A DNA stretch of 59,579 bases, from the NCBI GenBank assembly GCA_963802945.1, contig CAWDKY010000013.1:1-59579 (forward strand), written 5' to 3'. Shown in pieces: positions 24,294-33,403 of this stretch. Numbering within the stretch: the first letter of the stretch is position 1; each line of letters starts with the position of its first letter. This stretch comes from an uncultured delta proteobacterium. Lineage in GTDB: Bacteria > Desulfobacterota > RBG-13-43-22. Position numbers and translations under genes: made by a program. The notes under the pieces are model-generated. The model was given only the letters and a program-made list of their open reading frames with translations. It did not search any database and was not told where the DNA came from.

Positions 24294-25727
24294 ATGAAAG
24301 GATACGAAAGACTTGCTTTCCTGGATGCCACAGCCTTAGCCAGGCTGATCATGAGAAAAGAAATTCAGGTCAATGAACTCTTGGAATTCACCATTGAACG
24401 GATTGAAAAAATAAATCCGAAGCTTAATGCTGTTATCACCCCCATGTATGATGAGGCGCGCCAGGCAGTCCGGGAACCCATTCCCGACGGTCCTTTCGCC
24501 GGTGTGCCTTTCTTGATCAAAGACCTTCTCGCCTCATACCAGGGTGTACGCATGACCTTTGGGACAAAAAATCTACAGCATTACATTGCCGATCATGACA
24601 GTGAATTGGTATCCCGTTATAAAAAAGCGGGATTTATTACGCTGGGCAAAACGAACACCCCGGAACTGGGCCTCATGCCCACCACTGAATCGCGTTTATT
24701 GGGCCCCTGCCGTAATCCCTGGAATCTTAATCGTACAACCGGGGGATCCAGCGGCGGATCGGCGGCGGCTGTGGCCTCGGGCATGGTCTCTGTCGCCCAT
24801 GGAAACGACGGCGGCGGTTCTATCCGCATTCCCTCCTCCTGTTGCGGGGTGTTCGGCCTGAAACCCACTAGGGGGAGGAACCCTTTGGGGCCTGATTTTG
24901 GAGACATCATGAGCGGCTTGGTGGCTGAACACGTCATCACCCGATCGGTGCGGGATTCCGCAGCCATCCTGGATGCCACCATGGGATGCGACATCGGTGA
25001 TCCTTACTTCGCCCCCCAACCCGCAAGGCCTTTCAAGAAAGAAGTCGGGAAGAATCCCGGACGGCTCCGCATTGCCTATACGAGCCAAACGCTCAGGGGA
25101 GAGGCCTTTGCCGAGGATTGTCTAAAATCCCTCATGGATGCCGTAAAGCTCTGTTCCGACCTCGGCCATGACTTGATTGAAACGAAACCCACTCTCGACG
25201 GGGAACAACTAGGCAGGGCCTTTACAGTCATTTGGGCCGCAGGATGTACCTCTAACATCGAAGGAATTTCCCATATCACGGGGAAGAACCCATCTCCCGA
25301 TCAGTATGAACCGGTCACCTGGGGACTTTATGAAATGGGAAAACGATTTAGCGGTTCGGATTATCTTTTTGCCGTCCAGACCCTTCAGATGATTTCAAGG
25401 AAGGTGGCCCACTTCTTTTTAGACTTCGATATATTCATGACGCCTACCCTTGGCGAATCTCCGGTTGTCCTGGGAACTTTCGATTCTCCTATTGACGATC
25501 CCCTCAAGGGATGGAGGCGGTCGGCCCAGTTTGTCCCCTTCACGCCTATCTGTAATGCCACCGGGCAGCCAGCCATGTCTGTTCCTCTCTATTGGAACGA
25601 TGATGGGCTTCCCATAGGCACCCATTTCATAGGACGCTTCGGCGAAGAAGCTACCCTCTTTCGTCTGGCATCCCAGCTTGAAAAGGCCAGGCCATGGAAA
25701 CGCCGCAGGCCGCCCATTTCAGGTTGA
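24294..25727 (+). CDS. Amidase-signature family amidase
   Basis: [53 protein letters not shown]. Confidence 0.95.
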
Positions 25728-25803
25728 AGAATATTCGGTCTGCAATAAACAAAAAAATAGAGCGCTGTCCCTGCTTATAAAAATAAAAAAGGAGAAACAA
25801 GTG

Positions 25804-26511
25804 ATGAGCAACACCACAATTCTTGATCAGGCATTTCATTTTATTATGAAACGCATGGTGGAAACAGGCCAGGCCCCGTTTTACACGGAACTGGCAATTG
25901 AAGTCGGTCTTCCGATGGAAGAAGGCAGGAAAATCCTCCATGATCTTTTCTCCTCCGGCATAGCGGGATGGCTTTATCCTAAAACCGACCACATCGTCTC
26001 CTTTGCACCTTTCAACAATCTGCCCACCCAATACCGTATCACCATTGAAGGTCAGCAGAAATGGTTCGGCCAGTGAGCCTTTGAATCGCTGGCGGTCTGC
26101 TGGCTCTTTCCCGGCAAGAAAGTAACTATAGATTTCCCCTGCCTCGATTGTGGCGAAACTCTCCGGGTGATGCTTCAAGATGGTCAGATCCTGAATGATC
26201 GGGAATCGGCAGGATACATGACCTACGTCTCTGTGCCTTTCTGGAAATGGTTTGAAGATTCAAGCTATGCCTGAAGCACCATGACAATCTTCCGGTCGGA
26301 AGAGCATGTCCGCAACTGGGCCTCCTTTGTCCAGGGAACCGATGAGGGCCTTACCCCGCTTCCCGATATGGTCAAACTTTTTTCCGGACCTTACTTCAAG
26401 CGACGGATGGATGAGGATTATGTCTCCCACATGTTTGAATACGCCCGGGAAATGATCCCAACCATGAAAGAAATCGGCAAGACCGGGCCTTTCTGGAAGC
26501 GGCCGAAATAA
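25804..26511 (+). CDS. MerB (organomercurial lyase)-like protein with two in-frame TGA codons (26074-26076, 26272-26274) read as selenocysteine, 235 aa
   Basis: One continuous frame apart from the two TGAs; KWFGQ-U-AFESL aligns with MerB YAWC96ALDTL, FPCLDCG with the Cys117 region, SSYA-U-STMTIFRSEEHVRNW with QSFC159CHVHFFASVPTAEDW; RBS GGAG at 25791. Confidence 0.85.
26077..26103 (+). promoter_or_regulatory. SECIS-like hairpin 1
   Basis: CTGGC-GGTCT-GCTGG (26089-26103, includes G-U pairs); loop starts 17 nt after the TGA, like E. coli fdhF GCA-GGUC-UGC. Confidence 0.65.
26275..26308 (+). promoter_or_regulatory. SECIS-like hairpin 2
   Basis: TCTTCC-GGTC-GGAAGA perfect 6-bp stem (26288-26303), extendable by CATG/CATG; loop starts 19 nt after the TGA. 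Confidence 0.75.
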
Positions 26512-31243: not shown

Positions 31244-31337
31244 AAACATAAGCCGGAGATTTGGTTTTTTCCCGCTTTGCCATTTTCACTTTACACCAGA
31301 TATTTAAACTTTTAGCCATTAGGTTTTGAGGCCAATC

Positions 31338-32043
31338 ATGCTTGAGGTAAAAAACCTTAACGTATCCTACGGAGTTCTTCCAGTCCTGCACGACGTCGAT
31401 TTAACGGTCCAGGAAAATGAAGTGGTGGCCTTGCTGGGTTCCAACGGGGCCGGGAAAAGCACCCTATTCAATACCATCCAGGGAATGATGAAGCCCACTT
31501 CCGGAAGCATCCTTTTTTTGGGAAAGCCGATCGAGGGGCTTCCACCCCACAAGGTCATTGCCGAGGGAATTGCCCAGGTTCCCGAGGGACGGCGGCTGTT
31601 CCCTTTTATGACCGTACGGGAAAACCTCCTTCTTGGGGGCTTACCCAGGGAAGGCTTGGCAAGAGAAAGAGAAAAGAATGGAATGGGTCATGGAGCTTTT
31701 CCCGATTCTCAAAGAGAGGGCCCATATGCATTCCCGCCTCCTCTCCGGAGGGGAGCAACAGATGCTGACCATCGGCCGGGGTCTGATGGCCCAGCCTCGG
31801 ATGCTTTTGGTCGATGAGCCCTCTTTGGGACTGGCGCCCGTGATCCTGGACCATCTCTATGAAACCCTGGGAAAACTCCGGGATTCCAAGATCACCATCT
31901 TGCTCTCCGAACAGAATGCCCTGCGGGCCTTAGAGATAGCGGACCGCGGCTATGTGATGCAAGATGGTAAAATCATGCTCGAAGGAAAGTCCGACGACTT
32001 ATTGCAGAGCGATCTGGTGAAACGGGCCTACTTGGGGAGGTAA
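31338..32043 (+). CDS. ABC ATP-binding protein (LivF-like; apparent frameshift in the G-run near 31635)
   Basis: GSNGAGKST, VPEGRRLF, then LSGGEQQML, DEPSLGLAP, EQNA, AYLG in a second frame. Confidence 0.9.
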
Positions 32044-32046
32044 GGA

Positions 32047-33403
32047 ATGGACGATTATTTTTCCTATACGGCCAAACTTTTTAATCAGGCCGACATCAAT
32101 AACAAACCTGAGATTCTCAAAGGGATCCGCGTTCTGGATTTTTCTCACGTGATCTTCGGCCCCACGGCCACCCGGCTTTTGGCCCAATATGGGGCCGAAG
32201 TCATCAAGCTCGAACTCCCTTTTCATGGAGACCTTTGGAGGCCGGCCACCTATTGGGGAAAGTACTGGAAACACACCAACCCTCTATGGCACTTCATCAC
32301 CCAAAATAAATATTTTATGGGTTTGGATTTAAAAAAGCCGGAGGCCAAAGAGACTCATCTACAAGATGGCCGAGACCGCCGATGTGGTTACCGAAAACTT
32401 TGCCGCCGGAACAGCCGAAGCCTGGGGAGTGGGTTACACCCAGATCAGCAAAATCAACCCCAAGATCATTTATTTAAGTTGTTCCACCTACGGCCAGTAT
32501 GGCCCGTTGCGTTTCTATCCGGGATGGGACCTGTTGGCCCAGGCAGCCAGCGGGGTATTAAGCCTGACCGGTTATCCCGATACGGAAAAGTACTACAAGC
32601 TGCCCGATTATCTCGGAGATTACATTCCCGGCAATATGGGGGCCATGGCCATTCTCATGGCCCTTTACTATCGCCACAAATCGGGCAAAGGACAGTATAT
32701 TGACTTGGCCCAGTCCGAGGCCTTGATGCGGCTGCTTTGGCAGTTCACCTACTTCAACCTGACAGGGAAGGAAGTCGGCCGCACGGCGAACATTGATCCC
32801 ACCATGGTTCCGGCCTCTATTTTTAAAACCCGGGATGGAAAATTCTTGGCCCTGGCCTGCGCTACCGAGAAACAATTTGCCGGTCTTTGCCGGGCCATGA
32901 AACGTGAAGATCTTCTCAAGGAAAAAATCTTCACGGACACCCTTGAGAGGTTGAAACCGGCCAATGCCGCTGCCCTCAACCAGACGACCGGCGATTGGAT
33001 AAAGTCATTGGATGCCGAGGAGATTATCCGGAAGGCCAATGTCCAGGAGTTTCCGGCTGCTGAAGTCATGGATGATTACCAGATTTACCAGGATCCCTGG
33101 CGGCGTCAGCGCGGAAGCGTTATCCTGTTCAACGATGAAATGTATAAAGGACTGTTCATGTCTGGACCTTCGGCCCAGTTGAGTAAAACGCCGGCCCGGA
33201 CCAAATGGCTGGCCCGCCCCATCGGCTATCATAACCGGCTGGTCTTGAAAAAATTTATGGGCATGTCGGATGAGGAAATCGCCTCTTTGGAAAAAAAGAG
33301 GATCATCGGGACCTTCGACGATCGGCCGGGGCTTAAACCGCCTGTTTATTATAATCTCAATGAAGATCCGATCTTTAATTACGAGAGAGAGGAAACAAAG
33401 TGA
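32047..33403 (+). CDS. Family III CoA-transferase (CaiB/BaiF), subunit 1 (apparent frameshift near 32350)
   Basis: LKGIRVLDFS..GP..LAQYGAEVIKLE, NK..LDLK; second frame ADVVTENF, YGQYGP..PGWDLLAQAASG, GKGQYID. Confidence 0.88.

Follow-up and report, generated by a model that had tools for sequence, protein, structure and literature searches.

The window analysed here, meaning the whole stretch of 59,579 nucleotides (nt), is contig CAWDKY010000013.1 of an uncultured delta proteobacterium (assembly GCA_963802945.1). On its forward (+) strand, at 25804-26511, lies a single frame of 235 codons that is broken only by TGA at codons 91 and 157, and whose product resembles the organomercurial lyase MerB. 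An earlier interpretation made without database searches (hereafter the sequence-only reading) had joined two open reading frame (ORF) fragments and the gap between them into one frame interrupted at 26074 and 26272; these coordinates proved exact, and the stretches of read-through peptide quoted there match the DNA without exception. As that reading had also anticipated, standard annotation splits the gene, with ORF calling under genetic code table 11 yielding the fragments 25678-26076 and 26281-26511. A promoter and terminator scan returned nothing specific to the MerB-like gene at 25804-26511. The features of the gene are listed below, with the two predicted selenocysteine (Sec) residues placed by alignment against MerB, against homologues that encode Cys, and against SaoL. 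The last of these, which the sequence-only reading had correctly named, is a MerB-like organometallic lyase selenoprotein whose single Sec is described as lying in a CU motif (Haft and Gwadz, bioRxiv 10.1101/2022.07.06.499078).

25790-25794, + strand: Shine-Dalgarno-like AGGAG, 9 nt 5' of the ATG (direct sequence reading)
25804-26511, + strand: coding sequence of the predicted 235-residue MerB-like selenoprotein, ATG to TAA, with two in-frame UGA codons
26074-26076, + strand: UGA, predicted Sec91, opposite MerB Cys96, the SaoL Cys and the Cys of Cys-type homologues (alignment)
26083-26085, + strand: GAA, Glu94, at the MerB Asp99 position (alignment)
26140-26151, + strand: Cys113-Leu-Asp-Cys116, with Cys113 opposite MerB Cys117
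26272-26274, + strand: UGA, predicted Sec157, opposite MerB Cys159 and the SaoL Sec (alignment)
26509-26511, + strand: TAA stop, followed by a second TAA (direct sequence reading)

Conservation of the two TGA codons was examined at several evolutionary distances. Alignment A1 comprises 25 rows (the window sequence, 23 relatives from 14 genomes, and a distant paralogue from the same genome as the window; the contig-truncated copy L034 was excluded), and TGA occupies both columns in all 25. A search of 61 related genomes gave 27 match rows, 25 of which carried exactly two TGAs at identities of 42-99%, the remaining two being N-terminal pieces. When one genome per species was scanned, at least 597 pattern matches and at least 560 confirmed relatives were recovered; among the best 80 loci of these relatives, at 61-87% protein identity, both sites were TGA in every case (80/80), and the coding sequence was conserved both between and after the two codons. 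In an even sample of the phylum, the family was matched in 65 of 401 genomes and 46 of 254 genera, and two or more TGAs were present in 71 of the 88 matches. Contigs from metagenome runs (four runs, 80% likeness), which derive from relatives, pile up over 26044-26115 and 26260-26331; among the contig matches listed none differs at the TGA bases, which is weak evidence.

The sequence-only reading had looked to homologues bearing Cys or TGA at both columns for support, and these were found in A1, in the species scan, among fetched database proteins and at metagenome loci. Natural Cys/Cys homologues exist (P0191 and P0198), and two further proteins, P0192 and P0209, carry Cys at the first column and are truncated at the second. 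P0209 led to 80 metagenome loci, of which 43 were Cys/TGA, 24 were TGA/TGA, and 13 had a second site that the pattern did not match. Elsewhere in A1, Cys113 and Cys116 are both invariant, while the Glu94 column holds Glu in 24 of 25 rows and Asp in the paralogue, so that position +3 relative to the first site is acidic in all 25. The protein continues past the MerB core in a conserved C-terminal extension of about 50 residues that ends in Gly-Pro-Phe-Trp and is common to the Cys-type relatives.

A decayed copy and some short matches were also noted. One decayed copy (locus L144, G335:C14:3900-4900, - strand) has an in-frame TAA near codon 23, keeps the first-site TGA, and carries Val at the second site and Gln in place of Glu94, which is the pattern expected from loss of function. 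In addition, N-terminal-only matches of 82-90 residues without stops occur at G020:C7:188370-188636, G056:C112:2799-3044 and G324:C10:38205-38477, one of them preceding a full-length copy by about 300 bases; these short matches may be duplicated N-terminal domains or remnants.

A hairpin follows closely upon each UGA:

26088-26104, + strand: hairpin 1, stem GCUGGC/GCUGGC of six pairs including two G-U, loop GGUCU
26280-26308, + strand: hairpin 2 overall, overlapping the codons for a Phe-Arg-Ser-Glu motif
26288-26293 / 26298-26303, + strand: upper stem UCUUCC/GGAAGA of hairpin 2, with loop GGUC at 26294-26297 and a lower CAUG/CAUG stem

Bacterial selenocysteine insertion sequence (SECIS) elements, as sought by bSECISearch and as known from Escherichia coli fdhF, consist of a hairpin shortly past the UGA with G-U in the apical loop, and the fdhF element has a similar GGUC loop at a similar distance from its UGA. 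Structures of this type were found at both UGAs of the window gene, with hairpin 1 beginning 11 nt downstream of the first and the upper stem of hairpin 2 beginning 13 nt downstream of the second. Rfam yielded no credible match, whether to SECIS or otherwise (four matches, E 2.2-5.4).

Hairpin 2 is supported by covariation. Its seven-pair upper helix is 97.2% paired across 82 sequences, with two-sided changes at three pairs (C-G to U-A in 14 sequences, U-A to G-C in three and C-G to U-A in one); the covariation score was reached by none of 500 shuffles, slid controls paired at 39-54%, and RNAalifold recovered the same helix. Residues 162 and 167 also covary, Leu occurring with Glu and Cys with Ala, so that a base pair is kept in hairpin 2. 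The stem of hairpin 1, in contrast, is near-invariant among 75 distinct sequences, with variation mostly at three loop positions, and yields no covariation because it hardly varies. For this hairpin the Cys-type relatives provide a natural control that takes the place of covariation: all six stem pairs were present in 20 of 20 distinct metagenome sequences of the TGA type versus 5 of 33 of the Cys type, the latter having a mean of 3.55 pairs although the peptide is still similar. Relatives with a Cys codon at the first site have lost hairpin 1. Synonymous sites are frozen beneath both hairpins: Phe163, Arg164, Ser165 and Glu166 are always encoded by TTC, CGG, TCG and GAA (24 sequences), Leu162, where present, is CTC in 17 of 17, and the two hairpin regions have a normalised codon entropy of 0.24 and 0.52, versus 0.74 elsewhere. 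The RNA signal shapes the protein here, with hairpin 2 fixing the Phe-Arg-Ser-Glu motif.

The machinery for Sec insertion, on which the sequence-only reading depended, is present in the genome: selA (627 bits), selB, selD (which carries a TGA of its own) and tRNA-Sec (74.3 bits) were all detected. Genome-wide recoding of TGA was considered and rejected, since TGA ends 570 of the 1725 open frames of at least 300 codons and is therefore a normal stop in this organism. The window gene thus combines UGA opposite Cys, SECIS-type hairpins and a genome encoding selA, selB, selD and tRNA-Sec, the features by which a bacterial selenoprotein is recognised. On this sequence evidence, SelB and tRNA-Sec very likely decode each UGA as Sec, the downstream hairpin with its GGUC-type loop acting as guide. 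The only tRNA in the window itself is a tRNA-Leu at 82-168, which scores 36.7 bits with the tRNA-Sec model, below the threshold of 47 bits.

Homology to MerB, which the sequence-only reading had proposed by eye, was borne out by profile searches. The read-through protein matches the Pfam MerB family (PF03243) over residues 72-192 with 62.5 bits (E 4.9e-17; gathering threshold 27 bits), and a genome scan with the same model returned this locus at 45.9 bits with two TGAs inside the match. The identity of the fold rests on sequence-profile matches to solved MerB structures, the A1 family profile aligning with MerB2 (5C17) at E 3.6e-13 over profile positions 19-189 and with E. coli MerB (1S6L, 3F0P and others) at E 4.8e-9 over positions 20-181. 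Counting residues in the latter alignment equates Sec91 with Cys96, Glu94 with Asp99, Cys113 with Cys117 and Sec157 with Cys159 of E. coli MerB, so that the placement of the TGAs on the two catalytic Cys codons, with Glu at the Asp position, stood as first suggested. A survey of mer genes (PMC8261052) defines its MerB signature by these same four positions. Three of them differ in letter in the window protein, which lacks the Cys96, Cys159 and Asp99 of canonical MerB and agrees with it at Cys117. Sec is a chemical analogue of Cys, and the Cys96 and Cys159 sites are kept in kind, not in letter. As judged from these alignments, the fold and the active-site geometry are MerB-like. At the N terminus, residues 5-60 give weak matches to winged-helix profiles (TFE, E 0.0062; LrpA, E 0.068; LexA DNA-binding domain, E 0.2).

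We consider the whole best explained, with a probability somewhat above even, by an intact gene for a cytosolic MerB-fold lyase that has a Sec/Sec/Glu site and acts by carbon-metal(loid) protonolysis. Taken on its own, the assignment by analogy of protonolysis of a carbon-metal(loid) bond, outside any mer operon, as the likely activity stands at about an even chance. In such an enzyme, both UGAs would be read through in vivo under the guidance of the hairpins beginning 11-13 nt downstream, and one selenolate would bind the metal of an organometal substrate. Glu94, in place of the proton-donor Asp, would then give a proton to the carbon; the hydrocarbon would leave, and the metal would stay chelated between Sec91 and Sec157 until passed on, perhaps to Cys113-x-x-Cys116 or to small thiols. 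By the same analogy, the substrate would probably be a soft organometal such as methylmercury. Such carbon-metal chemistry is plausible: PMC10114901 describes a selone-based mimic of the MerB site that breaks C-Hg bonds, as well as selenoamino acids that demethylate methylmercury.

Several observations weigh against this proposal. No merA, merR or mer transport gene was found among the nine neighbours scanned with Pfam, the best match to MerA in the genome reached 330 bits against a cut-off of 454, and both HgcA and SaoL fell below cut-off in the genome as assembled. The neighbourhood is not conserved, no flanking family occurring in more than 9 of 81 loci. The canonical MerB equivalog (PRK13239, EC 4.99.1.2) matched with only 24.4 bits against a cut-off of 193, and Glu stands in for Asp99. 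Two selenolates should let go of a metal only very slowly, which is awkward for an enzyme that turns over mercury. When read runs were searched by sampled words, none contained above 0.09 of them, and no RNA run was among those listed. Finally, selB lies in three pieces on one strand (contig C30:178945-180834, - strand; model positions 1-210, 229-346 and 409-580). This fragmentation is probably an assembly artefact, because the assembly has other indel-type breaks, though selB may instead be inactive.

That the region is not one gene at all, being instead a pseudogene, the product of two sequencing errors, or three short ORFs with ordinary TGA stops, is extremely improbable. Standard ORF calling does split the region, and frame breaks do occur elsewhere in the assembly; those breaks, however, are frameshifts, whereas this region has no frameshift and only the two TGAs. 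The recurrence of both TGAs in 25/25 A1 rows and in the best 80/80 loci, with coding sequence conserved between and after them, led us to reject sequencing error and pseudogene formation, and the SECIS-type hairpins at both sites and the Cys at both columns in homologues point the same way. Chance falls far short of accounting for the pattern, in keeping with the judgement in the sequence-only reading that two nonsense errors at exactly the catalytic codons were unlikely. It is likewise hardly credible that the protein is a member of the described SaoL family and so belongs to the SAO system (short for selenocysteine-assisted organometallic). The two share a fold and a Sec at the second position, and the SaoL model NF040728 does match weakly (34.1 bits with the protein, 28.1 bits in the genome scan); the scores, however, are far under the family threshold of 140 bits, on which ground membership was rejected, and identity to true SaoL is 15%. 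Moreover, the window protein has Sec rather than Cys at the first site and Ala-Sec rather than Cys-Sec at the second, its C terminus is longer by about 50 residues, and Pfam identified no SAO-like neighbours, transporter or other, at the locus. Among the phylum genomes true SaoL occurs in 3/401 versus 65/401 for the two-Sec family, and because one genome (G381) holds both and their occurrence differs so widely, we regard the two as distinct.

The main rival accepts a MerB-fold protein with two Sec residues but not a lyase. It would make the protein a sink, chaperone or binder of very high affinity for soft metals or selenium, or else a redox protein cycling a Sec91-Sec157 diselenide, Cys113-x-x-Cys116 serving as relay; we rank it first among the alternatives because no MerA was found above cut-off and mercury release is expected to be slow, and nevertheless think it rather unlikely. 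Most known bacterial selenoproteins are redox proteins (PMC9312934), which would suit this view, as would the invariance of the CxxC pair in A1, the lack of a mer operon at the locus, the hindrance to product release from a bis-selenolate site, and the oxidoreductase-rhodanese and CCG-domain proteins near some loci (described below). Against it, the geometry of the MerB catalytic triad is kept, down to the acidic residue at +3 in every A1 row, and neither a binder nor a redox pair would need this; the neighbourhood signal is also weak, at 9 of 81 loci or fewer. We know of no redox members of the MerB fold. A metal(loid)-sensing transcription factor, binding DNA through an N-terminal winged helix and using the Sec pair as its sensor, would account for the weak winged-helix matches at residues 5-60. 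The N-terminal region, however, aligns with that of MerB itself (profile positions 20-181 against chain positions 32-183), MerB being an enzyme, and no conserved divergent target gene adjoins the 81 loci, which makes a sensor very improbable. Between these alternatives and a Sec/Sec/Glu lyase, we continue to favour the lyase.

The neighbours identified among the nine scanned with Pfam include an amidohydrolase (- strand), an amidase (+ strand, 76 nt upstream), a PAS-LuxR regulator and a branched-chain-type ATP-binding cassette (ABC) transporter. Across the 81 loci, the flanking families are a pyridine-nucleotide-disulfide oxidoreductase (coenzyme A [CoA]-disulfide-reductase-like) with a rhodanese domain (9/81), an HpaB-like family (7/81), a radical SAM family directly upstream (6/81), an amidase family (5/81) and an adjoining CCG-domain protein (5/81). 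Such minority neighbours can be seen, for example, at loci L120, L077 and L109. The window gene stands alone, and its context therefore says little about the substrate. Two other genes in the window are split by a change of frame, as the sequence-only reading had held in describing the window's other breaks as indels: an ABC ATPase (31326-31817 / 31633-32043; profile positions 1-80 and 80-136) and a family III CoA-transferase (32047-32703 / 32366-33403; profile positions 1-77 and 81-366). These frame breaks are either assembly indels or marks of pseudogenes.

Beyond what the sequence-only reading had claimed, the two-Sec form is widespread, and a second two-Sec paralogue lies in the same genome. 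The best 80 of the at least 560 loci all come from metagenome-assembled genomes, labelled mostly as delta proteobacteria, Syntrophales, Desulfomonilaceae, Desulfobacterales and Syntrophobacteraceae, with single loci labelled Dehalococcoidia, Abyssobacteria and Poribacteria. The two-Sec form is common in anaerobic sediment bacteria. In a quick tree of 78 rows, built on the region up to the second site with two-Sec rows thinned to below 80% identity, Cys/Cys forms occupy deep branches, and a clade with support 98 contains 41 Sec/Sec, 12 Cys/Sec and five Cys/Cys rows. At least 14 state changes are required on this tree, and Sec and Cys have swapped places repeatedly in the family, as they have in other selenoprotein families.

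The distant paralogue (C15:407764-408333, - strand; locus L002:1459-2205, - strand) lies outside the window, shares 24% identity with the window protein and matches Pfam MerB with 52.8 bits. It has Sec codons at both sites, Asp at +3 and two hairpins of its own. Inspection covered 21 such loci, namely L002 and 20 of the 25 other two-TGA matches of the type that the phylum sample contains. A strict pattern requiring U at both sites holds for 15 of them, and these show a compensatory U-A to C-G change in hairpin 2. The quick tree places the paralogue near SaoL, a position that carries a long-branch warning.

The sequence-only reading had located any novelty in the two-Sec form and its context, and as to the form the surveyed literature is in agreement. 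In the main texts of the Haft and Gwadz preprint and of the 2022 and 2026 selenoproteome reviews, the one-Sec SaoL is the only MerB-like selenoprotein, and none besides SaoL appears in the main texts of the deep-Sep and BSepDB papers (the BSepDB database itself being outside this scope) or of the 2008 ocean-sampling survey. NCBIfam release 20 has no model for the two-Sec form. It is a real and widespread variant of MerB-like selenoproteins, apparently uncatalogued so far, and it adds to the known selenoproteins a form with two Sec residues in one active site. Annotation has obscured it systematically, members being cut at UGA or having UGA read as Trp. Among the best 150 library matches, 44 end at query residues 88-91 and 11 start at residue 160; these fragments are cut at the UGAs. 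Eight of 16 fetched database proteins, all eight full-length, have Trp at both sites (P0153, P0155, P0156, P0157, P0159, P0164, P0175 and P0185, all public metagenome predictions), a sign that a genetic code with TGA as Trp was probably applied to the short contigs by gene callers. In P0186, the first site is Ser and the sequence ends at the second.

We compared the occurrence of the two-Sec family with that of HgcA, which is above cut-off in 119/401 phylum genomes. Among the 54 genomes that carry a two-TGA copy, 26 have HgcA, versus 93 of the 347 that carry none (odds ratio 2.5, Fisher p 0.002, uncorrected for kinship); the p-value overstates the association, because kin are not independent, and we treat the co-occurrence as a lead, not as evidence of function. 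A mer gene survey in which the Cys signature served as a screen reports no MerB-only genome that also has HgcAB (PMC8261052). Pathways of anaerobic methylmercury degradation are described as still unvalidated (PMC10114901), which makes the two-Sec family a testable candidate. That it is the missing mer-independent organomercurial lyase of anaerobes is a speculation we hold to be doubtful; were it true, methylmercury would be cleaved without MerA in mercury-methylating Thermodesulfobacteriota, with the mercury left bound to selenium, and selenium-mercury antagonism, long known, would be tied to a dedicated microbial enzyme. The capacity of anoxic sediments for demethylation would then have gone systematically unnoticed in surveys of merB based on predicted proteins.

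Among named systems, SaoL resembles the window protein in having a MerB fold, Sec at the MerB Cys159 position, an acidic residue three positions past the first site and a CxxC after it, as well as in its anaerobe hosts and in database entries truncated at UGA. It differs in having Cys at the first site and Cys-Sec at the second, where the window protein has Sec and Ala-Sec; true SaoL from the same phylum has Asp at +3 rather than Glu, and it lacks the C-terminal residues that end in the conserved Gly-Pro-Phe-Trp. SaoL belongs, furthermore, to a nine-gene SAO neighbourhood, whereas none was found around the window gene among Pfam-identified neighbours, SaoL being the only one of the Sao hidden Markov models applied.

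MerB of plasmid R831b (1S6L, 3F0P) is homologous to the window protein, all four signature positions aligning and the N-terminal helix-turn-helix-like region being shared. Relative to it, the window protein has two replacements of Cys by Sec and one of Asp by Glu, has no counterpart of Cys160, and is encoded outside a mer operon in a genome without MerA above cut-off. The best solved relative by sequence is MerB2 of Bacillus megaterium (5C17), both of whose Cys residues align with the two Sec; this natural 99Ser variant carries Ser where Asp99 would be and is Cys/Cys, in contrast to the Glu and the Sec/Sec of the window protein, and is reported as encoded in a mer context (PMC8261052). Also close are the Cys/Cys and Cys/Sec members of the same clade (P0191, P0198 and P0209 among them), which go under "hypothetical protein" or "Alkylmercury lyase" in their source databases. 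Their identity to the window protein is at most 51% for a Cys/Cys form (P0191) and at most 75%, over the shared part, for a Cys/Sec form (P0192). These proteins have Cys at one or both sites, and a Cys-type first site goes without hairpin 1; in length, architecture and C-terminal extension they are the same as the two-Sec protein of the window.

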